The notes: generated from the letters alone by a model not told the origin. DNA of 32,000 nt from Crocosphaera subtropica ATCC 51142 (GCF_000017845.1 NC_010546.1:2280001-2312000), one strand, 5' to 3'; counted from the stretch's first letter, positions 4,227 through 19,238 are shown. Translations and numbers: made by a program.

Positions 4227-7200
4227 CTACCAAGGACTACCAATTAAAGTAAACCCACTCCAAAAATAAGGATGTTCTAAAGATTGATCTCCTAATGCTG
4301 CTAGTTGGGGAGGTAAAGATAGACGATTATCAGGAGTGACTAATTGACCCTTTTTTATGTAAACGTCTCCTCTTAATAAGCTTAATTGTGCTTCTCGTAT
4401 GGCTTTAGTTTTTAAGGGAATTTGATTTAATTGTTCATAAAAGCGAGTCATTAAGGCAAGGGTTCCTTCGTCACTCACTTCCCAAAGACTTCCTAACACC
4501 GTTTTAACTTGCGCTAACACTGCAGCACCAGCAAAGCCTAATTCTGCTTCACGATCGCCTAAAGCGGTGCGACAAGCACTTAATACCAGTAATTCAATTT
4601 GTGGATCGCCAAAATTAAATTCTTTGAACTGATCTAATGTCAGTTGATTTTGCCAAAATTGAATATAAGAATTGTCCAATGTTCCCGTTTCAAAATTAGC
4701 ATGGGTGGCTAAATGAATAATCCCAAATTTTCCCGATTGATGAGCTTGCTGTAACTGTTTAAGGGTAAAATTTTCATTGAGAAATGAGTCTCCTTGCCAT
4801 AAGCGATCGGCAATGACCGATAACTCTAAAGGAACCGCCGGTAAAGGATTTTGTTGAGTAAATTCTGATGCACCCATCGCTAAAACTTGTTGCTGCGTCA
4901 TATCTTGATAGCGAGTATCACTCAAGGCTAAACTGGGCATGATACCCATATTATATTGTTCGATTAAAAATTCTGAACCATCATAAAGCGCGGCCAGAGG
5001 AACAGAACGCAATCCTCCCTCTACAATAAAAATAAGGGTGTCAATCTTAGCTGTGTCTAATGCTGTTTTGAGGGGTTGGATAAACCATTGATACAATTGT
5101 TGAGCCGGTTGACCATAAGCACTAGGACGGCGAGGATTAGTAATGGTGCTTTGAAAGTCAGCAACCGTGGAGAGGACTTGCTCACGGGTAACGTCTGTTA
5201 TGGGTTGGCGAATAACTTTACCCGATGCTGTTACTAGCATCAATTCTAATTGATCCTCTGGAGAGCTTTGATTGTTTGGTTGTTGAGGTTGTGCTGCTTG
5301 AGGAGAAGATTGAAACCTCCAGAGGGTTTGAGTGTCAGGGTTTTGAATAGAGGGTGATTGAGGTCGAAAAAAGATATAAATCAAGCCAGGTTTTAAACCG
5401 GTTAAGGTTTGACCTTCTTGTAAAATAGTCTGAGTTTGTTCAAGATTTAAAGGGGATACGGGTTCAATGCCTAAATGGTTGGCAAATTCTATGGTAAACC
5501 CTTGCTCAATATTTCTCAGCATAGCGCGATCGCTGTCTAAATTCGTCGTTAAACCGGTTTCGTTGGGTGATTGTCCTAACTCTGAGGTTTCAGTGTAAGC
5601 ATTATTTAAGTTAACGACAAATTCCAACCCAGGAGGTTTCGGGGTTGTAGGGGAAGCAGAGGGAGCAGAGGGAGCAGAGGAAGCAGAGGAAGCAGAGGAA
5701 GCAGGGGGAACAGAGGAAGCAGAGGGAGCAGGGGGAACAGAGGAAGCAGGGGGAGCAGAGGGAGCAGGGGGAACAGAGGAAGCAGGGGGAGCAGAGGGAA
5801 CAGGGGGTACTGGAGGTTCTGGGGTCATAAACTCAATGGCAACCCCATTAATGGTAATGGTTGAATTATTATCAGTTCCTGCGCTATTAAGGATATCTGG
5901 GGTCAACTGGTCGATTTGATCGGGGTCAAAAGGAATACCACCAATGATCACCTCTCCTCTTATCTCTCCATTGGTAGCTAAGGTTTCGAGATTAATCATC
6001 CCACCAGTGCCATTAGTGGATGAAGTATTAATGGTTTCTACTTCAATGATGGGAACGTTATCATTCGTATTTCCCTGGGCCGTAAGAGTAACTGAACCAC
6101 CACCGTCAGCAAAGGAAGTGTCAATATGACCGACAGTAACCTGACAACTATTCATTTGACGACAGCCATTTCCGAGCCGTTCAATGGTTAAGTCTCGTCC
6201 TGGAGCAATAATTGCGTCATCAGAATTCATTCTGAAACTGCCTACAGCCACTGCATCTGCATTAGCTCGAAAAATAATACTTCCTGAACCGGGTTGAAAG
6301 GTCAGTGCATCATCTGATAAATCTTCGATAGTGATATCGTTTTCGGCTTCGAGGATAATATTAGTGTTTCCAGATAATCCTTCTAATTCTGACTCAAAAA
6401 TTATCGTATTATTGGGAGGATCATTCCTTAAGATTTGTCCAATTTGACCGTTATTGTTCCCTGCAAAGGTATCGATGCCATCGGTTCCACTATCTCCCTC
6501 ACCGTCTTTGATAAGAATATTTTCAGGATCTAAAAGTAGGGTTCCAAAATCACCATTAACAGCACTGGTGTCGACAGTTCCTCGAAAAATTAGCTGTTGT
6601 TTGCCCGAAACTTCTACGAACCCCCCATTTCCTGCAATATTGCCCCCTCGACTGCTAATATTTCCATAAAATCCTGTGATCTCCTCTGACCAAACCGTGA
6701 CTTGACCCCCGTTACCCTGATTCATACTATCGCTGCGAAGGGTTGAACCTGAGTTAATTAAAGTACGTTGAGCAGTGGGAATGGTTGTTTGTCCTCGATA
6801 ATCTCCTCCCACTCTGATGGTTCCCCCTCCGGTGTTTCCTGACCCATCAATTTGAGCATTGATGACTGCAATGCGATCGCCGATCAAGGTTACGTTACCC
6901 CCGACTCCACTGGGTGAAGATGCGTCTAAAGTTCCTGATGTAACTAGGGTTGCTGGTGTGTTGGGAAGGTTAGCATTGTTTTCGGTTAATTGAATGCTTT
7001 GCTCGTTATTGGTACTAATATTTAAGTCTAAAGTTTGACTGCCTTCTGTTAGTAACGTCGGTAAATCTTGGGGTTTAATGTTTAATAATTCGGCATTGGT
7101 TTCTCTCGGTGCAGTAATTTCTAAACTGATGAGACTGCCGGGTTGAGAAATTCTAATGCGGTTGGTTCCTGGAATAGCTGAAATGGTAATATTTCCCCCT

Positions 7201-7829
7201 GGTGCTTTGAGAGTTCCCGTATTAACAATAGTGTTTCCTATTAGGGTAAGGTTATGACCCTCTGCAACGGTTAAATTCCCTGTATTAATAATATGACCGG
7301 ACTGCGTTAAATCAAAGGCAAATTGAGAGGGATCACCGATTAGTAATTGATAATTATTCGTTCCTACAGCATTAAACCAATAATTATTATCAAATCCCAT
7401 CCCTGTAGCAGTTATAGCGGTAAAATCAGCCGGTAAATTAAGCTGAACATTAGGACCAAAAACAATCCCTGCAGGATTCATTAAAAATAGGTTAGGGTTG
7501 CCACCAGTTATGGTAATCAGACCATTAATAATCGAAGCATCACCCCCAACGATTCGGGTTAAAATATTACGAATTTGAGGATTAGCTAAAAAGTTAGCAA
7601 TTTGCTCCCTATTCAGTCCAAATTTTTCTAAACTATGGAAAAGATTTGTCCCGTCTCCTGATAAACTTCCCCCTTCTATATTGAATTGATTTCCTTCTTG
7701 ATTAACAATGGTTCCTGTGCCATCATTTGCAGGGGTAATGGACTGACTTAAGGTAGGATTAATATGATTAATTTCTGTTAACCCTATCAACATAAAAACT
7801 AAATATTTTGTTATTTTTATTAACTTCAT
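4227..7829 (-). CDS. two-partner-secretion exoprotein (TpsA) with filamentous-haemagglutinin-type N-terminus and C-terminal CHAT protease domain
   Basis: Signal-like N-terminus. TPS domain motifs NLFHSLEKF and NPNLFLMNPAGIVFG. G/N/T-rich beta-helix-type repeats include GNGGFVEVSGKQ...GTLLLDPENILI. A Pro/Ser linker follows. The C-terminal CHAT-type region (QLYQWFIQPL...LRSVPLAAL) carries HLATHA (His1043, nt 4701-4703) and LVLSAC (Cys1086, nt 4572-4574). An SD (GAGGAG) lies upstream of the ATG. Confidence 0.85.
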   Translation of the reverse strand: MKLIKITKYLVFMLIGLTEINHINPTLSQSITPANDGTGTIVNQEGNQFNIEGGSLSGDGTNLFHSLEKFGLNREQIANFLANPQIRNILTRIVGGDASIINGLITITGGNPNLFLMNPAGIVFGPNVQLNLPADFTAITATGMGFDNNYWFNAVGTNNYQLLIGDPSQFAFDLTQSGHIINTGNLTVAEGHNLTLIGNTIVNTGTLKAPGGNITISAIPGTNRIRISQPGSLISLEITAPRETNAELLNIKPQDLPTLLTEGSQTLDLNISTNNEQSIQLTENNANLPNTPATLVTSGTLDASSPSGVGGNVTLIGDRIAVINAQIDGSGNTGGGTIRVGGDYRGQTTIPTAQRTLINSGSTLRSDSMNQGNGGQVTVWSEEITGFYGNISSRGGNIAGNGGFVEVSGKQQLIFRGTVDTSAVNGDFGTLLLDPENILIKDGEGDSGTDGIDTFAGNNNGQIGQILRNDPPNNTIIFESELEGLSGNTNIILEAENDITIEDLSDDALTFQPGSGSIIFRANADAVAVGSFRMNSDDAIIAPGRDLTIERLGNGCRQMNSCQVTVGHIDTSFADGGGSVTLTAQGNTNDNVPIIEVETINTSSTNGTGGMINLETLATNGEIRGEVIIGGIPFDPDQIDQLTPDILNSAGTDNNSTITINGVAIEFMTPEPPVPPVPSAPPASSVPPAPSAPPASSVPPAPSASSVPPASSASSASSAPSAPSASPTTPKPPGLEFVVNLNNAYTETSELGQSPNETGLTTNLDSDRAMLRNIEQGFTIEFANHLGIEPVSPLNLEQTQTILQEGQTLTGLKPGLIYIFFRPQSPSIQNPDTQTLWRFQSSPQAAQPQQPNNQSSPEDQLELMLVTASGKVIRQPITDVTREQVLSTVADFQSTITNPRRPSAYGQPAQQLYQWFIQPLKTALDTAKIDTLIFIVEGGLRSVPLAALYDGSEFLIEQYNMGIMPSLALSDTRYQDMTQQQVLAMGASEFTQQNPLPAVPLELSVIADRLWQGDSFLNENFTLKQLQQAHQSGKFGIIHLATHANFETGTLDNSYIQFWQNQLTLDQFKEFNFGDPQIELLVLSACRTALGDREAELGFAGAAVLAQVKTVLGSLWEVSDEGTLALMTRFYEQLNQIPLKTKAIREAQLSLLRGDVYIKKGQLVTPDNRLSLPPQLAALGDQSLEHPYFWSGFTLIGSPW
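5655..5825 (-). repeat. in-frame tandem array of about 19 copies of a 9-bp unit (plus strand AGCAGAGGR / AACAGAGGA) encoding the Pro/Ser/Ala linker of TpsA
   Basis: Read directly from the sequence. There are 17 near-identical 9-mers from 5655 to 5807 plus two degenerate units. They translate on the minus strand to PPVPSAPPASSVPPAPSAPPASSVPPAPSASSVPPASSASSASSAPSAPSA. Confidence 0.9.
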
Positions 7830-7877
7830 TTTCTCTTAACTCCTCGTTTCATAGTCATTTTACTTTTCTTCTAAAAC

Positions 7878-9611
7878 CTAAGGAGAATAATTAATTTGAA
7901 AATATAAGCCTTTTTCTTGAAGATTGTTACCGAAATGGGGTAAAGAAATTAAAGGAATTCCATAATCTAAACGTAGGGTTAATCCTTCAATGGTAGCAGC
8001 ATCATTCCAAATTAATCCTAATCCAGTTCCCATGATAAACTTTTTATTTTGTGAATTATCATTGTCTGTTGCAAACCAGACTGTTCCCATATCAATAAAA
8101 GGAGCAATTTCCAGAGTTGATTCATTTACACTATTATCCAGAATGTTAATTCTATTTTCTACAGATAATCTAAAGCCATTGTCCCCAAATCTAATATTTT
8201 GTCGATACCCTCTAACAGATTCTGCTCCTCCTATAATAAACCATTGATCCGGTAATAAAGGATCAGGAGTTAACTGTAATTCTCCTCGAATAATCATCAA
8301 ATGATTGTCATCCCATCGCTGTACTCTCTGTCCTTGAAATAACCAACTAAAAAAGCGACTATCAGGGGTTGAACCTGAGCGAATGGTCGCATCAAATAAA
8401 TCAACTCCCCAATTAAATTGAGAGCGTAAGAACCAAAATCCTTGTTCATCTCGACTTAAATAATCTTGTCCCAATTGAACAATGGTAGAGCGATTTCTAG
8501 CGTTTTCAATGGGTGCAATTTCTCCATTAATTAAGGTTTGTCCATTTTGATAACGAAACCCCACAGATAAGGCAAATTCATCGGATAAATTACGCCATAA
8601 TGGTTGACGAAAACTCATTTCATAAACTTGTTTGTTTCCTGTAATATTAAAATCATCTAAAGGCTCTTGTGTAATTCTTGTCCAAGTCGGAATTACTCGA
8701 ATTTGTAGGGTTCCTTCTTGGGGATTTAAAGGGAGTTGATAAATCGCATCGAGGGTATTTCCTCCATCAGTAGTTGAGCGATAATAAGACAAAGAAATAT
8801 TATCTCCCCATCCTGTTAAATTGTTGTTTTGTAAAAAAGTTCCAGTCCTATCTGAGCCAATACTGGGAGGCGAAAAGTTATCAATTCCTAGACCAAATTG
8901 CCATCTTTCACTTTCTTTTACTGTCACAACGATAATACTTAATCCCGGTTTTCCTGATGCTTTAAGGTTAGCATCAACTGTGTCTAACAGTGGATTTAAA
9001 GAGAGTCGTCTTAACTGTTTTTCTAATTGGGTAATATTAAGGGGTGAAGTAATTCCTAAAAGAAGGCGATCGCAAAGATAACCTAGGTGTAAATTTTTTC
9101 TACCGATTAAGTTTAATTCAGAAAGATTTCCCTCAATAATAGTGATTTTAGCCTCTGTATTTTTTGTTATGCTAGATAAAGGCTGGATAGTGGCTTTTGA
9201 AGTAATATAACCTTCTGTTAAATAATAGTTAGTAATTGTATCCGCTAAGATTTGATAAACTTGGTTGAATGTTTCTAAATTTAAGTTTTTTCCTTGATAA
9301 GTTTGAATAATATTATTGACTTCTGGAAAATCCATAATTTGCTGTGTGGTGAAGGCAGTATTTCCTGTTACTATAATCTCAATTGTTTTTTTCTCAACTA
9401 TCAAAGAGAATAAAAAATTGTTGTCAACTAAATCAGTTTTAGATTGAAAAATTAGAGGACAATTTTCTATGGTTTTTATCTCTTCAGCATTGGTTTTAAT
9501 AATAGAATTACTACTATCTTTTTCTGGTATAGATTCCATTTCATTTAGAGAGTTAGCAAATACTTCAATCTGTATGATCACTAATAATAAGCATAAACCC
9601 AGAAAAACCAT
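7878..9611 (-). CDS. ShlB/FhaC/HecB-family outer-membrane transporter (TpsB) with POTRA region
   Basis: Signal-like N-terminus MVFLGLCLLLVIIQIEVFANS. POTRA-type segment IEIIVTGNTAFTTQQI...YYLTEGYITSKATIQP...ITIIEGNLSELNLIGRKNL. A long beta-rich C-terminal barrel-like region follows. The gene ends 48 nt upstream of tpsA and is co-oriented with it. Confidence 0.85.
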   Translation of the reverse strand: MVFLGLCLLLVIIQIEVFANSLNEMESIPEKDSSNSIIKTNAEEIKTIENCPLIFQSKTDLVDNNFLFSLIVEKKTIEIIVTGNTAFTTQQIMDFPEVNNIIQTYQGKNLNLETFNQVYQILADTITNYYLTEGYITSKATIQPLSSITKNTEAKITIIEGNLSELNLIGRKNLHLGYLCDRLLLGITSPLNITQLEKQLRRLSLNPLLDTVDANLKASGKPGLSIIVVTVKESERWQFGLGIDNFSPPSIGSDRTGTFLQNNNLTGWGDNISLSYYRSTTDGGNTLDAIYQLPLNPQEGTLQIRVIPTWTRITQEPLDDFNITGNKQVYEMSFRQPLWRNLSDEFALSVGFRYQNGQTLINGEIAPIENARNRSTIVQLGQDYLSRDEQGFWFLRSQFNWGVDLFDATIRSGSTPDSRFFSWLFQGQRVQRWDDNHLMIIRGELQLTPDPLLPDQWFIIGGAESVRGYRQNIRFGDNGFRLSVENRINILDNSVNESTLEIAPFIDMGTVWFATDNDNSQNKKFIMGTGLGLIWNDAATIEGLTLRLDYGIPLISLPHFGNNLQEKGLYFQINYSP

Positions 9612-9779
9612 ATTATAACCTGTTATTAACCAATGAAGTATTATTTATCATAGATTTTTGAGCAAATTGAGGTACATTTTAGCACTGAACTGTTAAAAAT
9701 ATAACAAATTTTATACTCCTATAAGTAGTCGGACATAAATATAATTAACTGTCCTAAGAAATGTAAATTAAAACCTTCC

Positions 9780-9906: not shown

Positions 9907-12510
9907 TTAAAAGGATAAAGGAATGGGTCTTTCAATACCATACCCTTGAGCATAATCAACCCCTATTTCTTCTAAAATTTGTAAAATTTCTTGGTCTTCA
10001 ACCCATTCTGCAACGGTTTCCATATTCATAACATGACCAATACGATGAAAACAATCAATAAGACCATAATTAACTGAATCTTTTGTCAAATTTTTAACAA
10101 AACTGCCATCAATTTTTAAATAATCAACGGGTAAATGTTTAAGATAAGACAAAGAACTCATACCACTTCCAAAATCATCGAGAGCAAAGTAACAACCTAG
10201 CCGTTTGATCGCTTCAATCAGTTGAACAGCTTCAGTAAGATTAGTAATAGCAGTGGTTTCTGTAATTTCAAAACATAGATGTTGTGGATTAACTTTATAG
10301 GAGGATAACTGTTCTTCTATAAAATGACAAAGTTGGCTATTTTTTAAACTAATGGCAGATAAATTAATAGTATATAAACTCTTAAACTCTGTTGTATCTA
10401 GATCAGGTTGTGTCTGATAAGCTTCACTATAAACTTTGAAAAAGTTACTAATTACCCATTGATCAATGTCTGCCATTAAATTATAGCGTTCAGCAGCTGG
10501 AATAAAAGCGAATGGAGAAACTAAATTGCCCGACTCATCCAATAATCTTAATAAAATTTCATGGTGAACTTTCTCAGGAGATTGGATAGAAATAATTTTC
10601 TGAGAATAAAGACGAAAACGGTTGTCAGTCAGTGCATTATTTAACCGAACAATCCATTGACTTTGACCAATTTGTTGAGTAACTTCATAATCACTATCTT
10701 GATAAACATAAACACAGTTTCTTCCCCTTTCTTTGGCTGCATAACAAGCAGCATCTGCTGCATTTAAGAAAGACGTAATGGTTTTAATGTCTTGATTAAT
10801 GGCAACAATTCCGATGCTAACACCGATGGAAAAAACTTGGTTATCCCAAGTAAATCGAAAGTTTTTAACTAATTGCCTCAAGTTATTGGCGATGGCCTCT
10901 GCTTTTTTAAGAGAACATCCTTTAAGTAATAAACCAAATTCGTCTCCTCCTAATCGTGCTAAAATATCACTACTACGAACCCTGGCCTGTAATAAATGAG
11001 TCACTTCTTTTAATAATTCATCCCCTGCCACATGACCACAAGTATCATTAATGACTTTAAATTGATCTAAATCTAAATAACATAAAATATGTTCGATGTT
11101 TTCGGATTTATAAGCCTCTAAAGCTAGGGTTAATTGCTTTTCTAATTCCCTACGATTAACTAATCCCGTTAAAGGGTCATGACTAGCTTCCCATGATAAT
11201 TGATGGGCTAATTGTGAGGCTTGAGTAATATCCCTAAAGATCAAAACAGTCCCTAATATTTGATAATTTTGTCCTCGAATGGGGGTAATAACCATATCGA
11301 TTTCATATTGCTCTCTATTTTTTGCCTGTAAAATACCTGTTCTTCTTTCTCTTTGATTTTGACTGCTTCTTAGCACTTCATAAATGGGATTATCTAGGGA
11401 ATTTCCTCCGTTATCTATGAGTTTAAAAATTTTAGAAATGGGTTGATAGATAGCTTCCTTAGTAGTCCATCCTGTTAGTTGCTGAGCAATGGGATTAAAG
11501 TCTTGAATAATGCCTTGGGAATCAGTGGTAATGACAGCTTCACCAATAGAGTTTAGGGTAACTTTTGCTAATTCTTTTTCTTCAAATAAAGCTCGTTCTA
11601 CTAATTTTCGTTCGGTAATATTTTCAATGGTTCCTAAAACCCCTACAATATTACCCTTACTATCTTTTATGGGAATTTTGTTGGTATTGTACCAAACCTC
11701 TTGTCCTTCTGGATTCCGTTTTTGCTCGACAAAATTTAATTGAGGTTTCCCTGTATTAATAACACGAAGATCCTGTTCTCGATAATAATTAAGATTATTA
11801 TTTGGGGGATCTAAATGTTTATTATTAGGGTCATTATAAATATCATAATCCGTCTTCCCTCTTACTTGTTCTGGGTCTACAATTCCAGCAGCTTTTGCCC
11901 ATAAACGATTACATCCTAAAAAAATGGAATTTGTATCTTTCCAAAAAATTAGTTGAGGAATATTATCTAAAACTAATTGTAAAAAGGCTTTTTTTTCTTT
12001 CAACTCTTGTTCGACTTGGTAGCGAATTGTAATATCACACCAAGATACCATTAGTAAGTTTTGGTTCCATTCTAAAGGTTGTAAGAATATACTAGCATAG
12101 AGATAATTATTATCTTGTTTTTTGAGTTTTACTTCATAGTTACCCTTTGATTTTTGTGTTTTTAATTGCTGAATTAATAATTCTTTTTGAGGACTTTCCT
12201 CACACAAATCTAGAAAGGAGAAGGTTAACAAACTTTCTAAAGAAAACCCTAATAAAGAAAGAGCTTTTGGGTTAGCATAATTGATGCTTCCGTTGATACT
12301 TTGTATTAAAAGAATCGGCACAGGAATGGTGTTAGAAAATTCCTGAAATTGTTGAATTGGATTAGAATTTTCTAAAATTGAAGGTTTATCAAGTAAAGAA
12401 ATTAATTCTTCTAAAACTGCTGATTCAATTTTTCCCGATGCTTGGCAATATTGATCTAACTTTTGCCAAGTTTTTCGGTTAATATTAATGCTGACAGATT
12501 TCTCATTCAT
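9907..12510 (-). CDS. multi-PAS diguanylate cyclase/phosphodiesterase (GGDEF + EAL) signalling protein
   Basis: GGDEF motif LARLGGDEFGLLL (nt 10936-10950) with an RxxD I-site (RSSD) five residues upstream. EAL-domain motifs HHEILLRL, FEITETTAI, ALDDFGSGMSSLSYL, KIDGSFV, AEWVEDQE and AQGYGIERP. About three PAS-like segments precede the GGDEF domain. Confidence 0.9.
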   Translation of the reverse strand: MNEKSVSININRKTWQKLDQYCQASGKIESAVLEELISLLDKPSILENSNPIQQFQEFSNTIPVPILLIQSINGSINYANPKALSLLGFSLESLLTFSFLDLCEESPQKELLIQQLKTQKSKGNYEVKLKKQDNNYLYASIFLQPLEWNQNLLMVSWCDITIRYQVEQELKEKKAFLQLVLDNIPQLIFWKDTNSIFLGCNRLWAKAAGIVDPEQVRGKTDYDIYNDPNNKHLDPPNNNLNYYREQDLRVINTGKPQLNFVEQKRNPEGQEVWYNTNKIPIKDSKGNIVGVLGTIENITERKLVERALFEEKELAKVTLNSIGEAVITTDSQGIIQDFNPIAQQLTGWTTKEAIYQPISKIFKLIDNGGNSLDNPIYEVLRSSQNQRERRTGILQAKNREQYEIDMVITPIRGQNYQILGTVLIFRDITQASQLAHQLSWEASHDPLTGLVNRRELEKQLTLALEAYKSENIEHILCYLDLDQFKVINDTCGHVAGDELLKEVTHLLQARVRSSDILARLGGDEFGLLLKGCSLKKAEAIANNLRQLVKNFRFTWDNQVFSIGVSIGIVAINQDIKTITSFLNAADAACYAAKERGRNCVYVYQDSDYEVTQQIGQSQWIVRLNNALTDNRFRLYSQKIISIQSPEKVHHEILLRLLDESGNLVSPFAFIPAAERYNLMADIDQWVISNFFKVYSEAYQTQPDLDTTEFKSLYTINLSAISLKNSQLCHFIEEQLSSYKVNPQHLCFEITETTAITNLTEAVQLIEAIKRLGCYFALDDFGSGMSSLSYLKHLPVDYLKIDGSFVKNLTKDSVNYGLIDCFHRIGHVMNMETVAEWVEDQEILQILEEIGVDYAQGYGIERPIPLSF

Positions 12511-12879
12511 AACTAGATTTTAACATTTAGAAAATCAGCAGTTGTTTGCCAATTCGTCTATTCAAATGATAACTATTTATCGGATTATAGGCGAATAAAT
12601 TAACTCTGTTATAACTTACCGTAACTGTATTGTCACTGTTTATGTTCTCAAAGAGAATTATTTACAGTCTTATTTTACTGAGGCAGACAGAAGACATAAG
12701 ATAAATGTTCCGTCTCCCGTCATAACTTGCAAAGTGTAGGGAGTTCGTTTACAAATATTTATATATTAAATTCATGAAACCTATAATTGTTTCTTGTTAA
12801 GCTTTATGGAAACGTTGTACCTTATGTTAAACCGCCTAATCTAACCTTAGTTAAGTATGAGGAGATAGAAGAGAAGTCT

Positions 12880-14742
12880 ATGAATTATCACACCTTTGAT
12901 CCTCTCAACACTAATACAATATCCCCTATTTTAACCTGTCTTACGGATATTTATAAACGCTATCAACCCATCAATGAAGGCAATGTTGCTACTTATATCC
13001 CAGAACTAGCGAAAGCGAATCCTGATCTGTTTGGCATTTGTATTACCACCCCAGATGGACAAATTTATCAAGTGGGTGAATCTCAACATTCCTTTACCAT
13101 TCAATCCATTTCTAAACCCTTTGTCTATGGGTTAGCTTTAGGGGATCATGGAGTCGAGAAAATCATGAGTAAAGTAGGAGTAGAACCCACCGGAGAAGCG
13201 TTTAACTCCATCGTTTTTGATGAAGAAAATAACCGTCCTTATAATCCGATGGTCAATGCAGGGGCGATCGCTACTACGGCTTTAATTAAAGGAGAAGGGT
13301 ATGAACAACGGTTTAACCGTATTTTATCCATGTTTGAAGGGTTCGCAGGACGTTCTTTAACCGTTGATGAAGCCGTGTTTGAGTCCGAAAGGTCAACGGG
13401 CCACCGCAATCGGGCCATCGCCTATTTAGAGTTAAATGCAGGGATGTTAGAAGGCAACCTAGAGGAACATCTTGACCTCTATTTTCGCCAATGTTCTATT
13501 TTAGTGACAGCCAAAGATTTAGCGGTAATGGCCGCAACCTTAGCCAATAATGGTATTAACCCCATTACCCAACAACAAGCGGTTAACCCAGAGGAAGTCC
13601 GTGCCATTCTCAGCGTCATGGCCAGTTGTGGAATGTACGATTTTTCGGGAGAATGGCTCTATCGCATCGGTTTACCGGCTAAAAGTGGGGTAGGAGGCGG
13701 TATTATTGCCGTTTTACCGGGTCAGTTTGGCATTGGAACGTTTTCACCCCTTTTAGATCCTAGGGGTAATAGTGTCCGAGGAATTAAAGTGTGTGAGGAA
13801 CTGTCCCAACGGTTTAAGTTTCATTTATTTGATAGTCATCCTGTTTCCCAAACTTGCGTCAGTCGCACCTATACTGGGGCGATGGTATCTTCAAGACGAC
13901 AAAGACGAGCATTTCAAAGGGATTTTTTAGATCAAGCAGGGGAGAAAATTTTAGTTTACGAACTCAAAGGGGATCTTTATTTTGCCACCCTAGAAAAGTT
14001 AACCCGTCAGCTACAAAGTAACCAACAAACCGCTAAATTTATTGTTCTAGATGGTCGTCGGGTGGGTAATGTGAATAGTAGTGCCATTACCTTACTTTCG
14101 GAAATTAAACAATGGTGTTTAAGTCAAGAAATTACCTTGATGTTGACAGGATTTGAGCCAAAAACAACGGTAAGACTTAAAGCTAATGGTTGGACAGATG
14201 AAGGGTTTGTGGACAATATTGATACAGCCTTAGAATGGTGTGAAAATTGTTTATTAGCGGAGCAAGATTACCAAGATATAACGGTTAAAGATCAGTTGTC
14301 ATTAGAAGAGATGGATATCTTTAAAGCATTTACAGCCGAAGAAATGACAGCGATCGCTCCTTTATTTTCTGAGGTTTCCTATCAACCTAAGGACTTTATT
14401 ATTCGGGAAGGAGAAAAAAGCGATCGTTTATTTTTGTTAGCTAAAGGAATGACAACGGTTTCGTTACAACTGTCTCAAACAGAACAAAGAAAACGCTTAA
14501 CTACCTATATTCCTGGGATTGCTTTTGGAGAATTAGCCCTTTTTGATATTAACGTGAGTCAAAGAACGGCTGATATTGTGGCAGATACTGAAGTCATTTG
14601 TTATGTTTTAGAATTCGATAGATTAAAGACTTTACTGAAGACAAAACCTGAAGTTTATATCAAGCTACTGCAAACCTTTGGAAAAACCCTTGTTAATACC
14701 ATTAAACGGGCAACCTTAGAAATTCGTAGTTTATCTGTTTAA
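12880..14742 (+). CDS. glsA: glutaminase A fused to a STAS domain and a cyclic-nucleotide-binding (CAP/CNB) domain
   Basis: Glutaminase core with the Ser-x-x-Lys motif TIQSISKPF, plus NPMVNAGAI and GLPAKSGVGGGI. STAS-like segment at about 13945-14245 (KILVYELKGDLYFAT...VLDGRRV...). CNB domain at about 14302-14700 with phosphate-binding cassette FGELAL...QRTA (14524-14571). I prefer ATG 12880 (GGAG 15-20 nt upstream) over the TTG at 12787 given in the ORF track. Confidence 0.88.
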   Translation: MNYHTFDPLNTNTISPILTCLTDIYKRYQPINEGNVATYIPELAKANPDLFGICITTPDGQIYQVGESQHSFTIQSISKPFVYGLALGDHGVEKIMSKVGVEPTGEAFNSIVFDEENNRPYNPMVNAGAIATTALIKGEGYEQRFNRILSMFEGFAGRSLTVDEAVFESERSTGHRNRAIAYLELNAGMLEGNLEEHLDLYFRQCSILVTAKDLAVMAATLANNGINPITQQQAVNPEEVRAILSVMASCGMYDFSGEWLYRIGLPAKSGVGGGIIAVLPGQFGIGTFSPLLDPRGNSVRGIKVCEELSQRFKFHLFDSHPVSQTCVSRTYTGAMVSSRRQRRAFQRDFLDQAGEKILVYELKGDLYFATLEKLTRQLQSNQQTAKFIVLDGRRVGNVNSSAITLLSEIKQWCLSQEITLMLTGFEPKTTVRLKANGWTDEGFVDNIDTALEWCENCLLAEQDYQDITVKDQLSLEEMDIFKAFTAEEMTAIAPLFSEVSYQPKDFIIREGEKSDRLFLLAKGMTTVSLQLSQTEQRKRLTTYIPGIAFGELALFDINVSQRTADIVADTEVICYVLEFDRLKTLLKTKPEVYIKLLQTFGKTLVNTIKRATLEIRSLSV

Positions 14743-14978
14743 TTATTATTGATGAGAGAACGAGTTAGAAAATTATTTTATTATTACCCTGTAAACCTTG
14801 GGCATTAATTTAAGTTCTCTTTTCTTTAAACTAAACCGTTTACCAACTTCCTTGGTTTCAAAATAATTGAATTTTTGTTAAGATAATTGACTTTTTAAAT
14901 TAATCTGCTTATCTTATAGGGAGTAATTATTATTTTAAAATTAGACATATTCTAGTTGTTGTTCACCCCATTCAACTT

Positions 14979-15731
14979 ATGAAAAAAAGCTCAACTTTAA
15001 ACCCTTGGCAAAAACTTAGTTTGTTCCTTTCTCTTCTCGTTTTAGGCGTTTCTTTTCCCTTATTACCGACCCTATCTTCTCCCTTATTAAATCGTTCTAT
15101 TCTTAGCTTAAATTTTCCCGATACCGGTGATAGAGGGGCTCCGAAAAAAAGCGCAGGAGGAGGAACCCGTAGTGACGATGAAACCTGTTTAACGAATGAA
15201 GAGAATGAACCCCCCTTAGTTGTTTTGATGCCAAACCGAGAAAATAAAGGAAAAACTGCCAGCGATACCCCAACCTTTTATGGCTATATCCCTACCACAA
15301 CTGCAACCCAAGGGGAATTTGTTTTAGTTGATGCAGATAATAATGAAGTGTATTATACTCAATTTCCTTTACCTTCAACCCCAGGGATTATTAAGCTAGA
15401 AATTCCCAAAACAGTAGCCTTAAAACCCGGTAGTTATAATTGGTCATTGATGGTTATTTGTGATTCTCGTTATCGAAATCGAGATAAATATGTAGAGGGT
15501 TCTTTGGAATATGTTGATCTCGCCCAAGGATTGGAAAATGAAAATCAAGCGCAACCTTCCTTAGAAAAAGCCCAAGTTTATGCTGATGCGAGTCTCTGGT
15601 TTGAAACCCTTGACACCTTAGCTCAAATAAAAGAAGAAAATCCCCAAGAATGGCAAGAACTTTTAACCTCAGTGGGGTTAGAAATGTTAGCAGAAGTTCC
15701 TATGGTTGATTGTTGTCAATCTGATAATTAA
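14979..15731 (+). CDS. secreted DUF928-family protein (cyanobacterial)
   Basis: The N-terminal hydrophobic signal-like segment is followed by the DUF928-like pattern GDRGAPKKSAGGGTRSD..C...LVVLMP...TPTFYGYIP...GEFVLVD...PGSYNWSLMVICD...YADASLWFETLDTLA...WQELLTSVGL. The assignment is from remembered family consensus. Confidence 0.75.
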   Translation: MKKSSTLNPWQKLSLFLSLLVLGVSFPLLPTLSSPLLNRSILSLNFPDTGDRGAPKKSAGGGTRSDDETCLTNEENEPPLVVLMPNRENKGKTASDTPTFYGYIPTTTATQGEFVLVDADNNEVYYTQFPLPSTPGIIKLEIPKTVALKPGSYNWSLMVICDSRYRNRDKYVEGSLEYVDLAQGLENENQAQPSLEKAQVYADASLWFETLDTLAQIKEENPQEWQELLTSVGLEMLAEVPMVDCCQSDN

Positions 15732-16174
15732 TAAGAATAAGTTGGGTTTCTTAATAAAACCAGAGAGGATTTTTGAAAGATAAACTCACCATAGTCTGCT
15801 AAATCATCAAGACCAAGAAAATTAAGTACAATTTCGGTGATTAAAGTCATGAATATATATAGAAGTAACTTTTTCCATTTAACTTGCATTGTTTTAATCT
15901 CCGCACTCTTATCAGATGTTTTTGGGGGTTCATTATATTCATAGGTTTGACTGCGGGGATCTTATGCACAAAAAAATAACTCTGAGAATGAGGACAGTTG
16001 GCAACTTTGTCAGCTACAAAAAGTGATCCTTTGAAGCAATCGGTAATGGGGAACAGATAATTAAACTAGGGTATAGTTTAACGACTTGCAAAGTGCTGTA
16101 TGAAGAATTAACAGAAATTTCGGTAAAGATCGGTTTAAAATAAGCTAACGATCATTAAGTTTTCTTCAATCTTT

Positions 16175-18418
16175 ATGTGGGAAGGGTTAAAACATTTTTT
16201 CTGGCAAACCCGTGGGGTGTGGATTACAATACCAACTGTCGCAGGATTGGTTATCCTGTTACGGTTAGGAGGAGTATTACAAGGATGGGAATGGGACTTA
16301 TTTGATTTTTATATGAAATCTCGCCCCCCAGAAACGAAAGATGATCGCATTGCTATTGTTGGCATTAATGAAAATGACTTACACCGACGCAACGAGTCCA
16401 TTATTAGTGATCAAGTCTTAGGGGAATTACTCAATAAATTAAAAGCCCAAAACCCTCGTGCTATTGGCTTAGATATTTATCGAGATTTACCCGTTCCTCC
16501 AGGCCATGACACATTAGTGGAGGTCTTCGAGACAACCCCCAATCTTGTCGGTATCCAAAAAGTCGCCGGGGAAGTGGGATGGGAAACCGTTGCACCGCCC
16601 CCCATTTTAAAAGAAAAAGGTCAAGTGGGGGCTAATGACTTAATTTTTGATGGAGATAACCGAGTGAGACGGGGGTTAATTTCCTTAGATACCGAAGACG
16701 GAGAAACGGTTTATAGTTTTGGCCTTCATCTCGCTTTACATTACCTCGATCAAGAAGGCATTGGCCCGGAAATGATCCCAGGAACCGATCAATGGAAACT
16801 CGGAAAAACCCTGTTTTCTCCCCTCAACCCCAACGATGGGGGTTACGTTCGCACCGATGCAGGAGGTTATCAACTATTAATTAATTATCGGGGAGGGGAT
16901 GGCACCTTTGAAACCGTGTCTATGACCGATATTCTCGATAATAAGGTTCCTGCGGATTGGGCCAGCGATCGCATTATTATTATCGGTAAAGTAGGAGAAA
17001 GCTTCAAAGACCTTTTTTTTACTCCTTATAGTAGTGGTTTAATTGGCTTACCTGAACCCGTGGCCGGGGCTGAAATTCACGCTAATTTAGTCAGTCAAAT
17101 TCTAAGCGCATCCTTAGAAGATCGTCCCTTGTTTAAAACCTGGTCAGACCCTCTAGAATGGCTGTGGATCGTCTTTTGGGCAGGGATGGGGGCTACTTTA
17201 ACCTGGACGTTTCGCTACCAGCAGGGGTCAAAAAACGCCTCGCTGAAGCGATGGATTGGTATTTTCGGGGTAGGCATGATTTTAATCGGTAGTACCTATG
17301 TTGCCTTCCTTGAAGGGTGGTGGCTTCCCGTTGTTCCGCCATTTTTGGCCTTTTTGGGGTCAACCATGGCCATCACTGCCTATATTGCCCGTACTGCGGC
17401 CGATATTCGCAAAACCTTTGGTCGCTATCTAACGGATCAAGTGGTAGCTAATTTGTTAGAAAATCCTCAAGGCTTATCCTTGGGAGGAGAACGAAGAAAG
17501 ATCACGATTTTAACCTCAGATTTGCGAGGATTTACTGCAACCTCTGAACGATTACCCCCTGAAGAAGTGGTGAAAATTCTTAACTTTTATTTGGGGAAAA
17601 TGGCTGATGTTATCACTGAATATGAAGGGACGATTGATGAGTTTATGGGGGATGGTATCTTAGTATTATTTGGTGCGCCTACTGCCCAAGATAATGACGC
17701 TCAACGGGCGATCGCTTGTGCCGTTGCCATGCAGTTAGCCATGAAATCTGTTAACGAACAGATGAAACAATGGGATTTACCTAAACTAGAGATGGGAATT
17801 GGTATTAATACAGGGGAGGTGGTTGTGGGTAATATTGGTTCAGAAAAACGGACAAAATATGGGGTAGTCGGTTCTCAAGTTAATTTAACCTATCGCGTGG
17901 AATCTTATACCCTCGGAGGACAAATTTTGATAGCTGAGGCCACGTTAAAGGAAGCAGGATCAATGGTTGTCATTGAATCAGAAAAACAGGTACAACCCAA
18001 AGGGGTTCAAGAACCCATTTCGATTTACGAAGTGGGAGGAATTAAGGGAAATTATAATTTATTTTTAGCAAAACAAGAAGAAATTTTTGTCAAAATACCT
18101 CAACCTTTATCGCTTCAATATAGTATTTTGGATGGAAAAAATGTTGCTGATATTAAGTATCATGGTAAGTTAGTAGAATTATCAGCAAATGGGGGGATAA
18201 TTGATTATGATCACGATGATGCTCAAGGTTTGATCTCAGGAATGACTAACATTAAGTGTAATTTATTCAGTTCCGAAACCTCTGAATTAATTAGTGACGA
18301 TATTTATGCTAAGGTTCTAGATAAATCTAATAAAAATGGAGGGTTTTATATTCGTTTTACGGCTAAACCTCCTAACATTACTAAACAATTAGAAGAAATT
18401 TATCAAAGTCTCATCTAA
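16175..18418 (+). CDS. CHASE2 sensor-domain class III nucleotide cyclase (Cya2-like; specificity residues suggest guanylate cyclase)
   Basis: N-terminal TM segment. CHASE2-type region (DDRIAIVGINENDL...PRAIGLDIYRDLP). Three TM segments at about aa 327-405. Cyclase homology domain with metal Asp residues in ILTSDLRGFT and FMGDGILVLFGAP, and transition-state Asn/Arg in VNLTYRVES. A roughly 125-aa C-terminal extension follows. Confidence 0.9.
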   Translation: MWEGLKHFFWQTRGVWITIPTVAGLVILLRLGGVLQGWEWDLFDFYMKSRPPETKDDRIAIVGINENDLHRRNESIISDQVLGELLNKLKAQNPRAIGLDIYRDLPVPPGHDTLVEVFETTPNLVGIQKVAGEVGWETVAPPPILKEKGQVGANDLIFDGDNRVRRGLISLDTEDGETVYSFGLHLALHYLDQEGIGPEMIPGTDQWKLGKTLFSPLNPNDGGYVRTDAGGYQLLINYRGGDGTFETVSMTDILDNKVPADWASDRIIIIGKVGESFKDLFFTPYSSGLIGLPEPVAGAEIHANLVSQILSASLEDRPLFKTWSDPLEWLWIVFWAGMGATLTWTFRYQQGSKNASLKRWIGIFGVGMILIGSTYVAFLEGWWLPVVPPFLAFLGSTMAITAYIARTAADIRKTFGRYLTDQVVANLLENPQGLSLGGERRKITILTSDLRGFTATSERLPPEEVVKILNFYLGKMADVITEYEGTIDEFMGDGILVLFGAPTAQDNDAQRAIACAVAMQLAMKSVNEQMKQWDLPKLEMGIGINTGEVVVGNIGSEKRTKYGVVGSQVNLTYRVESYTLGGQILIAEATLKEAGSMVVIESEKQVQPKGVQEPISIYEVGGIKGNYNLFLAKQEEIFVKIPQPLSLQYSILDGKNVADIKYHGKLVELSANGGIIDYDHDDAQGLISGMTNIKCNLFSSETSELISDDIYAKVLDKSNKNGGFYIRFTAKPPNITKQLEEIYQSLI

Positions 18419-18464
18419 AATTGTAGATTATTCTTTTTATCATTTACGAATTATTATATATATT

Positions 18465-19238
18465 ATGTATCAGCTACTTTTTTTAGGTTCAGGTTCAGCA
18501 TTTACCGTCGGGACTGATAATTTTCATTCTAATATATTTCTTATCACTGAAACAGGGAAAAAATTATTAATTGATTGTGGGTCTGATCTTCGTTTTTCTT
18601 TGCATAAAGAAGGGTTTTCCCATCGAGATATTACAGATATTTATATTAGTCACTTACATTCTGATCATGCTGGAGGGTTAGAATATGTTGGATTAACCAC
18701 TAAATTTGATCCTCGATGTGATAAACCTAATTTATATTTAAGTCATGATATTGCTAGTAAAATTTGGGAAAATACCCTATCAGGAGGAATGGGATCGATT
18801 GAAGGAACAATTACCAGTTTAGAGAGTTTTTTTAACGTTCATGCTGTTGATAATAACCGATGCTTTAGTTGGCAAAATATTAACTTTGAATTAGTGAAAA
18901 CGATTCATATCAATAACGGAACTTATGTGATGCCAACTTATGGTTTATTTTTTGAAGTTAATCATCAGAAAATTTTTATCACCAGTGATACCCAATTATG
19001 TTATCAAGAACTTGAAACTTACTATCAGAAAGCTGATATTATTTTTCATGATTGTGAAACCTCAAAATATCCTACCCCTGTTCATTCACATTATCAAGAA
19101 TTGGTTAAGTTACCCAATCAGATAAAAGGAAAAATATGGTTATATGGGTATCAACCAGGAGAACTTCCGAATGCAGAAAAAGATGGTTTTTTAGGGTTTG
19201 TTAACAGAGGAGATAAATTTGTAATTCAAGATATTTAG
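18465..19238 (+). CDS. MBL-fold metallo-hydrolase
   Basis: N-terminal LLFLGSGSAF and the HxHxDH motif SHLHSDHAGG (nt 18651-18668). It starts 46 nt after the cyclase stop on the same strand. Confidence 0.8.
   Translation: MYQLLFLGSGSAFTVGTDNFHSNIFLITETGKKLLIDCGSDLRFSLHKEGFSHRDITDIYISHLHSDHAGGLEYVGLTTKFDPRCDKPNLYLSHDIASKIWENTLSGGMGSIEGTITSLESFFNVHAVDNNRCFSWQNINFELVKTIHINNGTYVMPTYGLFFEVNHQKIFITSDTQLCYQELETYYQKADIIFHDCETSKYPTPVHSHYQELVKLPNQIKGKIWLYGYQPGELPNAEKDGFLGFVNRGDKFVIQDI

Follow-up and report, generated by a model that had tools for sequence, protein, structure and literature searches.

The locus analysed here raises the question whether a 15-kb block of seven genes in Crocosphaera subtropica ATCC 51142 encodes a single envelope signalling system, as an earlier note on this DNA had proposed. 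The block lies within a stretch of 32,000 nucleotides, referred to below as the window. Its gene organization was borne out by ORF calling and Pfam searches, with all seven ORFs recovered and every named domain above its Pfam gathering score. Both edges are convergent junctions: on the left, a pilin-like gene ends at 4149 (plus strand) opposite the end of tpsA at 4227 (minus strand), and on the right, the gene for a metallo-beta-lactamase (MBL)-fold enzyme ends at 19238 (plus strand) opposite glgB, which ends at 19468 (minus strand). The divergent spacer between the two arms (12511-12879) measures the described 369 bp, provided that the ATG at 12880, corresponding to residue 32 in the longest ORF, is the start of the glutaminase gene. 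The proposal that the whole 15 kb acts as one system did not hold. Rather than one seven-gene machine, the block is layered, with further genes added loosely to a cGMP signalling cassette that is widely conserved among cyanobacteria. As judged from gene neighbourhoods, its invariant core is DUF928 and CHASE2 only, and the MBL gene is added in the Cya2 subfamily.

The CHASE2 sensor gene (16175-18418, plus strand) encodes a 747-residue protein consisting of a first transmembrane segment, a periplasmic CHASE2 domain, a transmembrane bundle, a class III cyclase domain and a C-terminal extension. Pfam assigned CHASE2 with 218 bits (residues 23-340) and Guanylate_cyc with 85.6 bits, and the transmembrane segments, at about residues 14-37 and 360-404, flank CHASE2. 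The same architecture, with about 750 residues, is found in Cya2 of Synechocystis sp. PCC 6803 (sll0646, PDB ID: 2w01), which the catalytic domain matches with 291 bits and 68.7% identity over 201 residues. The guanine-specifying pair, Glu489/Gly563, is identical to the Glu and Gly pair of Cya2, the TIDEFMGDG motif is the same as in 2w01, and the metal-binding residues D449 and D493 as well as the transition-state residues N570 and R574 are present; the metal Asp pair, the Asn and the Arg are conserved in all 51 DUF928-linked cyclases. In Cya2 itself, the substitution E488K (PDB ID: 6fht) converts the guanylate cyclase to an adenylate cyclase (PMC5995499). By sequence, the CHASE2 protein of the window is thus orthologous to the guanylate cyclase Cya2, and none of the catalytic residues is missing. 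Because of this orthology, the messenger is most likely cGMP, which refines the earlier claim of an unspecified cyclic nucleotide as output of the CHASE2 cyclase. Reviews treat the signal and the cGMP targets of Cya2 as unknown, and a literature search found no link of Cya2 to DUF928, an Apyc1-like phosphodiesterase, cyclic-nucleotide-binding (CNB) effectors or CHAT/TPS proteins.

A gap of 46 bp separates the cyclase gene from the MBL gene that comes after it (18465-19238, plus strand). The MBL protein matches Pfam PF23023 (Anti-Pycsar_Apyc1) with 82.6 bits against a cut-off of 50, and its best relatives in the Protein Data Bank are Apyc1/class II MBL enzymes (7u2r, 7t28 and 7u2s at 95-82 bits, 7u2r being best at 95.5). 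The HxHxDH-type metal motif, HLHSDH at residues 63-68, is shared with phage SBSphiJ Apyc1 and B. subtilis YhfI, class II MBL phosphodiesterases of the same Pfam family. The protein thus belongs to a cyclic-mononucleotide phosphodiesterase family, in line with the earlier suggestion that it removes the cyclic nucleotide, although it scored only 27 bits against the cut-off of 400 for NCBIfam NF041851 and is not that equivalog. The Apyc1 family hydrolyses cyclic mononucleotides, and related bacterial MBL phosphodiesterases favour cAMP and cGMP (PMC9117128). In contrast to phage Apyc1, the window gene is chromosomal and operonic with a housekeeping-type receptor guanylate cyclase, outside a phage or defence context. 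An MBL gene lies directly after the cyclase gene in 12 survey loci and in loci L075-L077, in at least four orders.

DUF928 and CHASE2 had been named as recurring neighbours, and this was supported very strongly. In a survey of phylogenetically clustered genomes, many of them from Nostoc and Crocosphaera, CHASE2 was present in 56 of 66 DUF928 loci from many orders, and in 47/53 of those loci that extended for 3 kb or more in both directions from DUF928. The two genes were within 300 bp of each other in 51 of the 56 paired loci and on the same strand in 55. When CHASE2 loci were instead picked from homolog lists, independently of DUF928, a DUF928 gene adjoined CHASE2 in 9/10. The output domain of the CHASE2 protein beside DUF928 can be a cyclase, GGDEF, GGDEF-EAL, CHAT or trypsin-like domain, or be missing altogether; because the output varies while DUF928 stays, the shared function is placed on the periplasmic side. 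DUF928 co-diverges with the CHASE2 ectodomain (r = 0.956) and with the cyclase domain (r = 0.853), and the partial r with the ectodomain given the cyclase is 0.905, values which rest on non-independent pairwise distances between adjacent genes that share history anyway. The trio DUF928, cyclase and MBL is kept in that order in PCC 7424, Anabaena cylindrica PCC 7122, Pantanalinema, Dolichospermum, Microcystaceae and Crocosphaera. In the present strain, the DUF928 gene (14979-15731, plus strand) is parted from the cyclase gene by a 443-bp spacer holding a small convergent ORF, so the two genes are probably not co-transcribed here. This ORF (15728-15889, minus strand) encodes 53 residues with one hydrophobic segment, and its counterpart at the same position in locus L002 is 83% identical.

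The DUF928 protein has 250 residues and matches Pfam PF06051 with 171.7 bits (cut-off 26), covering profile positions 2-184 of 184. An N-terminal export signal, which is its only hydrophobic segment, is followed by a disordered but highly conserved motif, DRGAPxxTxGGGTR64-S, a 7-strand beta-sandwich and a 4-helix bundle; R64 is kept in 60 of 69 sequences. An AF2 model of the protein (pLDDT 80.8) was compared with known structures using Foldseek, and the best fold match was the C-terminal Ig-like and TPR domain of MtxA (PDB ID: 4z29, E 4e-4). The fit is moderate (TMt 0.48-0.51 over 171 aligned columns, rmsd 5.1 Å), and a profile search of the Protein Data Bank at E <= 1 did not find 4z29; no sequence similarity to MtxA was detected. 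The DUF928 protein is predicted to be exported, and from its gene linkage and its model we read it as a putative periplasmic partner of the CHASE2 sensor. A literature search found no experiment on any DUF928 protein.

The leftward arm ends in a tpsB/tpsA pair. The TpsA-CHAT gene (4227-7829, minus strand) encodes 1200 residues comprising a signal sequence, a TPS domain, a beta-helix-like Gly/Asn-rich region, a Pro/Ser/Ala-rich linker at about residues 665-735, which is encoded by a tandem 18/27-nt repeat (5649-5807, minus strand; detected by TRF), and a CHAT domain. The TPS domain (PF05860, 127.7 bits; TIGR01901, 62.7 bits) contains the motifs NPNL...NPAGI in a stretch that reads GGNPNLFLMNPAGIVFG. 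The CHAT domain (224.3 bits) has its catalytic dyad at His1043/Cys1086, which is kept in 23-24 of 24 aligned CHAT sequences and is the same as in the CHAT proteases HetF and Csx29. The tpsB gene (7878-9611, minus strand), 48 bp upstream of tpsA-CHAT, encodes a 577-residue ShlB/FhaC-type Omp85 transporter with a signal peptide and hydrophobic N-terminus, matches to ShlB (129 bits), Omp85 and POTRA_2 (32 bits), and an L6 VRGY motif in ESVRGYRQN. The gene pair, the TPS domain with its NPNL/NPxGI motifs, the POTRA domain and VRGY are all shared with the FhaB/FhaC and ShlA/ShlB systems; tpsB and tpsA-CHAT would thus form a two-partner secretion pair, with TpsB-driven export of TpsA predicted. Stand-alone TPR-CHAT proteins carry only an N-terminal export signal. 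The predicted locations of DUF928, the CHAT proteins and the CHASE2 ectodomain in the envelope agree with those proposed earlier. In the literature searched, neither a TpsA passenger ending in a CHAT protease nor a TpsA-CHAT recurrently linked to DUF928/CHASE2 sensors was found described.

Two further genes flank the divergent spacer. The rightward one (12787/12880-14742, plus strand) encodes a glutaminase A with C-terminal STAS and CNB domains (Pfam Glutaminase 414 bits, STAS, and cNMP_binding 53 bits; NCBIfam TIGR03814 367 bits, above cut-off). Its phosphate-binding cassette has the motif GELAL...RTA, and an RTA cassette is common to both main types of CNB protein near the module. The glutaminase gene adjoins the module in five loci of the Crocosphaera clade, and relatives of Crocosphaera have an MscS-CNB channel beside it. 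Among 77 loci, 10 have a CNB protein of one of three architectures, and these all come from the Crocosphaera/Microcystaceae clade, which makes this linkage a feature of one clade of related genomes. We regard the glutaminase as a candidate for reading cGMP locally that is peculiar to the Crocosphaera clade; of the earlier idea of a CNB reader next to the system, the local linkage of cNMP-binding proteins was recovered, whereas the link of the glutaminase is confined to one clade. The leftward gene (9907-12510, minus strand) encodes a cytoplasmic protein with three PAS domains, GGDEF and EAL. Apart from L003, which shares the gene order and is the closest relative to do so, no locus has a homolog at this position; it is absent there from L007 and L008 and from the other lineages. 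Since the gene adjoins the module in no more than the window and this close relative, the proposed c-di-GMP control of the secretion arm is without comparative support, and the gene is probably a passenger outside the system.

The earlier description of the circuit as a candidate undescribed system needs to be qualified, since partial precedents exist. The nearest of them in function comes from Sinorhizobium meliloti, where NsrA is needed for signal perception via CyaK, an experimentally supported pairing of an outer-membrane co-receptor with a CHASE2 cyclase (PMC7529298). The genes abut on pSymB, with the nsrA stop overlapping the cyaK start (checked in L067). As in the window, NsrA-CyaK (and CyaD1/D2) combines a CHASE2 class III cyclase with an envelope-protein gene directly upstream, and NsrA spans the same compartments by a periplasmic domain, TPR repeats and an outer-membrane barrel. 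Unlike the window proteins, NsrA combines FecR, TPR and barrel parts in a single polypeptide; CyaK signals through cAMP, with Clr as its reader, instead of the predicted cGMP, and a CHAT protease, TPS protein and adjacent MBL phosphodiesterase are lacking. Pfam identified no FecR domain in the window proteins, and neither the DUF928 nor the ShlB profile matched NsrA, so the link to NsrA is one of analogy only. At most, then, the window system works like the NsrA-CyaK family, of which it is not a member. In magnetotactic bacteria, mtxA is followed by a CHASE2 adenylate cyclase gene, and its deletion gave no phenotype under the conditions tested (PMC4439547). MtxA resembles DUF928 in this gene context and in being a periplasmic protein with a signal peptide, and its Ig-like beta-sandwich, after which comes a TPR-like helical domain, may have a counterpart in the DUF928 model; it has an extra N-terminal domain, however, and lacks the GGGTR motif. 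A third pair, a LysM-FecR protein with a CHASE2 histidine kinase, is kept across genera in Burkholderia and Pseudomonas (PA4035/PA4036 type; PMC5192318). There too, the gene of a secreted periplasmic protein adjoins that of a CHASE2 sensor, but the fold is LysM plus FecR, the signal leaves through a histidine kinase and a response regulator, and there is no cyclase, phosphodiesterase or protease arm.

Taken together, the explanation we prefer, and hold with somewhat better than even confidence, is a conserved DUF928-Cya2-MBL cGMP cassette equipped with an accessory CHAT arm and local CNB readers. By analogy with NsrA for CyaK and with MtxA, DUF928 would assist the CHASE2 ectodomain from the periplasm, either as a co-receptor or by presenting a ligand to it, and thereby control cGMP synthesis. 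The MBL enzyme would likely hydrolyse cGMP and reset the signal, which could be read locally by the glutaminase CNB domain in Crocosphaera and by the MscS-CNB channel in its relatives. The TpsA-CHAT protease, with its predicted export through TpsB, probably acts on the sensor from its envelope side, and our most specific guess is that it cuts DUF928 at the conserved disordered GGGTR|S motif. The CHAT protease HetF cuts PatU3 after an Arg, between R117 and S118 (PMC9457339). Carried further, this would give a proteolysis-gated trans-envelope receptor, in which cleavage after the GGGTR Arg converts or releases DUF928 as an activating or inhibiting CHASE2 ligand. The CHAT protease would be supplied as a TpsB-exported TpsA fusion in Crocosphaera and Nostoc and as a signal-peptide TPR-CHAT protein elsewhere, and cell-surface events would be relayed to cGMP (or c-di-GMP, or cytoplasmic protease activity). 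Such gating is a speculative and rather unlikely extension.

Whether the arm belongs to the module at all can be questioned. Only DUF928-Cya2-MBL might be a functional unit, with tpsB/tpsA-CHAT an independent secretion system, for instance of a surface or competition exoprotease, the glutaminase a mere neighbour, and the nearness due to shared envelope-gene islands or co-regulation. No TPS, CHAT or ShlB genes were found within 10 kb of the trio in PCC 7424, Anabaena cylindrica PCC 7122 and Pantanalinema (L075-L077), nor within 10 kb in the Crocosphaera relatives L004, L010 and L014, and in the window the arm lies about 7 kb from the module, behind the non-conserved GGDEF-EAL gene and the glutaminase gene. 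Filamentous cyanobacteria also have many CHAT genes, and loci L056 and L057 hold several each. Yet in 15/22 loci a CHAT gene directly adjoins the module, where random placement would predict 1.6, and none of 200,000 simulations reached this count; by architecture class the count is 6/9 (binomial P = 1e-5), and at least six gene orders are involved. Orthologs of the window TpsA-CHAT, with 50-58% identity, directly precede DUF928 by 22-297 bp in nine Nostoc genomes, and TPS-only, TPR-CHAT and ShlB genes also turn up beside CHASE2 loci that had been picked independently (L068, L069, L070, L073 and L074). Some proteins are CHASE2-CHAT fusions, and the TPS-CHAT/TpsB arm occurs within 7 kb in three Crocosphaera gene orders. 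A fully independent arm is a serious alternative that we nevertheless hold to be doubtful; on gene placement, the arm is a patchy but non-random accessory of the module, and the recurrence earlier attributed to CHAT, TPS and ShlB neighbours is significant without being general.

The flow could also be reversed, CHASE2 and DUF928 forming a periplasmic platform or regulator that controls a secreted or periplasmic CHAT protease, with DUF928 as, for example, its inhibitor, immunity protein or chaperone. What emerges in the cytoplasm, be it cGMP, c-di-GMP or the activity of a protease domain, would then report the status of envelope proteolysis or secretion and not an external ligand. This would suit the position of CHAT directly beside DUF928 rather than CHASE2 in 6 of 8 arrangement types, the output-less CHASE2-only proteins that adjoin DUF928, TPR-CHAT and ShlB (L052 and L063), and the nature of DUF928 as a small beta-sandwich and helical protein with a conserved exposed loop. 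It is nonetheless improbable, as DUF928 has CHASE2 for a companion in about 85-90% of loci but CHAT in only about a third, co-varies in sequence with the CHASE2 ectodomain, and occurs in Cya2-type trios lacking a nearby CHAT gene. Finally, a cyclase, CNB proteins and an Apyc1-like MBL enzyme might suggest a Pycsar-like anti-phage defence or counter-defence locus, all the more as PADLOC PycC models match the cyclase domain (81.5 bits), PycTIR models match the glutaminase CNB domain, and the Apyc1 family was first found as a phage anti-Pycsar enzyme (PMC9117128). These PADLOC matches are, however, limited to generic class III cyclase and CNB domains, and neither a TIR nor a PycTM effector was detected in the window by Pfam or PADLOC. 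A cyclase with a CHASE2 membrane sensor and the Cya2 Glu/Gly pair, the stable synteny of a conserved chromosomal locus across cyanobacterial orders, and the preference of related bacterial MBL phosphodiesterases for cAMP and cGMP likewise make a defence role very hard to credit.

Co-receptor-assisted CHASE2 signalling was known before, and the locus would add a new form of it, with cGMP as the predicted output and a mechanism that we infer. If the proteolysis-gated receptor were true, bacteria would have their own equivalent of protease-activated receptors, and a class of CHASE2 ligands would be defined for the first time. The block as a whole offers testable candidates for the switch and the readers of bacterial cGMP signalling.

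The earlier note had described positions 4227-19238 as a single candidate envelope signalling block of seven genes. The window comes from Crocosphaera subtropica ATCC 51142, and its DUF928 and cyclase proteins are 100% identical to database entries of that strain. Its gene coordinates agree with the ORF map of the window, every domain assignment scores above the Pfam gathering score, and the ORF map confirms convergent junctions at both edges. On the reverse strand lie the genes for a two-partner secretion (TPS) protein with a CHAT protease domain (TpsA-CHAT, 4227-7829), for TpsB with ShlB/Omp85 and POTRA_2 domains (7878-9611), and for a protein with three PAS, a GGDEF and an EAL domain (9907-12510). 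The forward strand encodes a glutaminase with STAS and cNMP-binding domains (12880-14742), DUF928 (14979-15731), a CHASE2 sensor with a class III cyclase domain (16175-18418) and an MBL-fold protein (18465-19238). The block is flanked by unrelated housekeeping genes, namely a pilin-like gene, glgB, polA, chpXY and a cyanophycin-synthetase-like gene. An Rfam scan of the window gave no match, and promoter and terminator scans returned counts equal to those of shuffled sequences, and are thus uninformative on operon structure. The finding is real but needs re-scoping. Its core is formed by DUF928, a Cya2-type CHASE2 guanylate cyclase and an Apyc1-like phosphodiesterase, whereas the TpsB/TpsA-CHAT arm is accessory, the glutaminase gene clade-specific and the GGDEF-EAL gene probably a passenger.

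The recurrence of DUF928 and CHASE2 as neighbours, to which the earlier note had pointed, was borne out in both directions. A scan of a one-genome-per-species collection with an eight-sequence DUF928 alignment yielded 66 DUF928-encoding loci, spanning Crocosphaera, Microcystaceae, Nostoc, Dolichospermum, Anabaena, Tychonema/Microcoleus, Oculatellaceae, Symploca, Limnospira and others, and up to 10 kb of flanking sequence was screened with profiles seeded from the domains of the window. Of the 66 loci, 56 carry a CHASE2 gene, which lies at most 300 bp from DUF928 in 51 and shares its strand in 55; when only loci with at least 3 kb on each side are counted, it is found in 47 of 53. One exception carries a histidine kinase gene after DUF928 (L026). 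In another exception, a Crocosphaera-clade locus that looks like a disrupted module, an IS110-family transposase gene directly follows DUF928 in the expected place of the CHASE2 cyclase gene (L009, 2211-3428, reverse strand). Unbiased clustering of the flanking ORFs gave DUF928 in 66 loci, CHASE2 in 57, CHAT/TPS in 26 and MBL in 12; the other flanking families are lineage-specific synteny. For the reverse test, ten CHASE2 proteins were picked from homolog lists blind to DUF928, and a DUF928 gene adjoins nine of the ten CHASE2 genes (L068-L073 and L075-L077). The tenth (L074) has TPR-CHAT and TPS genes upstream of CHASE2 instead.

On the cytoplasmic side, CHASE2 proteins linked to DUF928 carry a cyclase, GGDEF, GGDEF-EAL, an N-terminal CHAT domain, a trypsin-like domain or no output domain at all, so that what stays constant is the periplasmic side. 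Four CHASE2 proteins lacking a cyclase carry a cytoplasmic N-terminal CHAT domain (three proteins) or a trypsin-like domain (one), and each adjoins DUF928 and a second, exported TPR-CHAT protein (L056, 11447-13861, reverse strand; L061, 7261-9660, L065, 7581-9893, and L064, 6324-8537, all forward strand). The divergence of DUF928 correlates more strongly with that of the CHASE2 ectodomain (r = 0.956; partial r = 0.905 given cyclase distance) than with that of the cyclase domain to which the ectodomain is joined (r = 0.853), a co-divergence that is only suggestive because pairwise distances are non-independent. In paralogous modules within one Nostoc genome, both DUF928 and CHASE2 have diverged. 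The second Nostoc paralogue group, whose specificity pair is E/T, also has a highly conserved ORF of about 109 residues without a Pfam match, about 250 bp downstream of the CHASE2 cyclase gene (L027, 3463-3789, and 17 other Nostoc loci).

The DUF928 protein has an export signal and no further hydrophobic segment. The most conserved motif of the family, DRGAPxxTxGGGTR-S/G, lies in a disordered stretch, and its R64 is kept in 60 of 69 sequences. After the motif, the model predicts a seven-strand beta-sandwich followed by four helices. Among PDB folds, the model best resembles the C-terminal portion of MtxA (4z29), where an Ig-like domain precedes a TPR-like one. MtxA resides in the periplasm of magnetotactic bacteria, and a CHASE2 adenylate-cyclase gene comes after mtxA (PMC4439547). 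The match is moderate and the DUF928 profile found nothing meaningful among PDB sequences; it is thus read as a shared layout in a shared genomic context and not as established homology. A literature search for DUF928, PF06051 and sll1891 yielded only a passing mention of DUF928, in connection with a single cluster of Nostoc punctiforme. For the CHASE2 sensor, the AF2 model is confident (pLDDT 87.8) but has no significant neighbour in the PDB (best E 0.29) and therefore offers no clue to the ligand.

Against the Synechocystis Cya2 crystal structure (2w01), the catalytic domain of the window cyclase scores 291 bits, with 68.7% identity over 201 residues. Cya2 is a verified, CHASE2-regulated guanylate cyclase. 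Synechocystis Cya2 itself was not among the 120 matches listed in either homolog search. Both proteins share the motif TIDEFMGDG, whose Glu is Cya2 E488, and the substitution E488K makes Cya2 an adenylate cyclase (PMC5995499). The window cyclase has Gly at the second specificity position, and all four catalytic residues are present. Of the cyclases linked to DUF928, 23 have the specificity pair E/G, 19 have E/T, five D/T and four K/G, so that lineages differ in the nucleotide to which the sensor module is coupled. The MBL protein scores 82.6 bits against the Pfam Apyc1 family (cut-off 50), contains the HxHxDH motif, and has the Apyc1 proteins 7u2r, 7u2s and 7t28 as its best solved relatives. 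Cyclic mononucleotides, cAMP and cGMP among them, are hydrolysed by Apyc1 and by bacterial MBL phosphodiesterases related to it, and it was suggested that host copies may serve "other cNMP-based signalling systems" (PMC9117128). The same-strand order of DUF928, Cya2-type cyclase and Apyc1-like MBL gene is shared by Gloeothece PCC 7424, Anabaena cylindrica PCC 7122, Pantanalinema, Dolichospermum, one Microcystaceae genome and the Crocosphaera clade.

In the window, DUF928 and the cyclase gene are separated by 443 bp. This spacer holds an ORF of 53 residues with one hydrophobic segment (15728-15889, reverse strand), which is convergent with DUF928 and overlaps its stop codon; a Crocosphaera MAG has a counterpart with 83% identity in the corresponding place (L002, 10757-10915). 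Given this spacer, DUF928 and the cyclase gene are probably transcribed apart in this strain. In some Crocosphaera genomes the spacer is enlarged to 1.7-1.8 kb with extra ORFs (L001, 10793-12475, reverse strand; L004, 10908-12231), so DUF928 and the cyclase gene are becoming separated in this clade.

TpsA-CHAT contains the TPS motifs NPNL and NPAGI, a Gly/Asn-rich region, a Pro/Ser/Ala-rich linker and a CHAT domain with a His1043/Cys1086 dyad. The linker is encoded by a tandem repeat of 18/27-nt units in 5.5-8.5 copies (5649-5807), which is probably why GC skew is high in the 5001-6000 bin. TpsB comprises POTRA_2 and a ShlB barrel with a VRGY motif, and its gene ends 48 bp upstream of tpsA. 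Whether these families recur at the module was assessed against random placement inside the screened flanks and by comparing near and far densities. Among the 66 loci, CHAT occurs in 22, TPS in 14 and ShlB in 10. A CHAT gene lies within 300 bp of the DUF928-CHASE2 module in 15 of the 22 loci, whereas random placement predicts 1.6 and reached 15 in none of 200,000 simulations. CHAT abuts the module in six of nine architecture classes (binomial P = 1e-5), and there are 5.3 CHAT genes per 100 kb within 3 kb of the module compared with 1.3 farther out.

The gene order varies. In Nostoc, TPS-CHAT precedes DUF928 and the cyclase gene. Elsewhere, TPR-CHAT follows DUF928 and the cyclase, stands between ShlB and DUF928, or precedes a CHAT-CHASE2 gene and DUF928; in another arrangement CHASE2 and DUF928 converge with ShlB and TPR-CHAT, the latter next to DUF928. 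Coleofasciculus PCC 7420 has TPS, cyclase and DUF928 genes converging with TPR-CHAT, followed by ShlB; TPS and CHAT are separate proteins there and fused in the window. The stand-alone CHAT proteins, of about 920 residues, consist of a signal peptide, TPR repeats and CHAT, and their signal peptides suggest that they are also exported. The window TpsA-CHAT is orthologous to the Nostoc proteins encoded directly before DUF928 and an E/G cyclase. Its C-terminal 437 residues are 50% identical to theirs and its N-terminal part 56-58%, whereas identity to TPR-CHATs is only 27-34%. In the Crocosphaera clade the arm lies within 7 kb in three gene orders (the window and L003, L007, L008). On the other hand, it was not found within 10 kb in L004, L010, L014 and L075-L077, and is therefore rated a recurrent accessory rather than part of the core. 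In the literature searched, no publication names both "CHAT domain" and "CHASE2".

Of 77 loci, 10 contain ORFs with cNMP-binding domains (CNB), none of them outside the Crocosphaera/Microcystaceae clade. Each of these ORFs directly adjoins the module, and they show three architectures: glutaminase-STAS-CNB, MscS-CNB and a CNB-only protein. In seven Crocosphaera-clade genomes an MscS-type channel with a C-terminal cNMP-binding domain adjoins the DUF928-cyclase-MBL cassette (L002, 8273-9802; L003, 14557-16041; L004, 15624-17072; L007, 13815-15302; L008, 8024-9586; L009, 11-1189; L011, 361-1911); the window has no MscS-CNB gene at that cassette-side position. The CNB-only protein, of 145 residues, is encoded divergently from the adjoining DUF928 in a Microcystaceae MAG (L014, 9496-9930, reverse strand). 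Both the glutaminase and the MscS-CNB protein have an RTA phosphate-binding cassette, which in PKG and CNG channels is compatible with cGMP binding and may weakly hint at it here. It is plausible that the CNB proteins are readers of the messenger of the module, a link limited to this clade, with the channel as a candidate second cGMP effector. In Gloeothece PCC 7424, three successive MscS-family genes with no recorded CNB domain lie 1.5-6 kb downstream of the trio (L075, 14504-18422). A PAS-GGDEF-EAL homolog between arm and module is found in the window and L003 only, not in L007, L008 or other lineages, and the control of the secretion arm that the earlier note had assigned to it thus finds no comparative support.

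Other CHASE2 sensors also have partners in the envelope. In Sinorhizobium meliloti, the CHASE2 cyclases CyaK and CyaD1/D2 are reported to need the outer-membrane protein NsrA to perceive plant-derived protein signals (PMC7529298). On pSymB, nsrA directly adjoins cyaK, and a Pfam scan shows NsrA to consist of FecR, TPR and a C-terminal barrel. In Burkholderia/Pseudomonas, a periplasmic LysM-FecR protein is paired with a CHASE2 histidine kinase (PMC5192318). Having a dedicated co-receptor in the envelope thus seems typical of CHASE2 sensors in general. Since neither the DUF928 nor the ShlB profile shows similarity to NsrA, homology between the cyanobacterial and rhizobial systems was rejected; the cyanobacterial version employs unrelated proteins. 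Reading the locus as a Pycsar or other defence system was likewise rejected. Divergently upstream of nsrA-cyaK on pSymB is a DUF5706 gene with a 44-bit match to the Pycsar effector family PycTM (L067, 3621-4166, reverse strand).

We infer that the locus represents co-receptor-assisted CHASE2 signalling in a form not described before. DUF928 would bind the CHASE2 ectodomain or present a signal to it, setting the activity of the Cya2-type cyclase; local CNB proteins would read the cGMP, the Apyc1-like enzyme would remove it, and the CHAT protease would work on the envelope side. HetF, the founding CHAT protease, cuts PatU3 between Arg117 and Ser118 (PMC9457339). Because this cut falls after Arg and before Ser, the near-invariant, disordered GGGTR↓S of DUF928 is an attractive candidate cleavage site, and cleavage by CHAT there may be guessed from this analogy.

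Cya2 is a long-standing reference for bacterial guanylate cyclases, yet reviews still call the signal of its CHASE2 domain and the targets of cyanobacterial cGMP unknown or poorly known, and name just one cGMP phosphodiesterase, slr2100. CHASE2 in general is not known to have a defined ligand. The locus and its relatives give candidates for each signalling step. DUF928, a domain of unknown function, gains a specific functional context as a candidate periplasmic partner that looks obligate. The candidate dedicated phosphodiesterase would exemplify a host Apyc1-like enzyme in ordinary cNMP signalling, as the Apyc1 authors speculated. Two kinds of candidate cNMP-binding effector are offered, the glutaminase and the MscS-type channel, and the former, if true, would tie cGMP to nitrogen metabolism in a diazotroph. 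The secreted CHAT protease arm is unusual. The locus thereby offers direct experimental handles on cyanobacterial cGMP signalling, including in genetically tractable strains.
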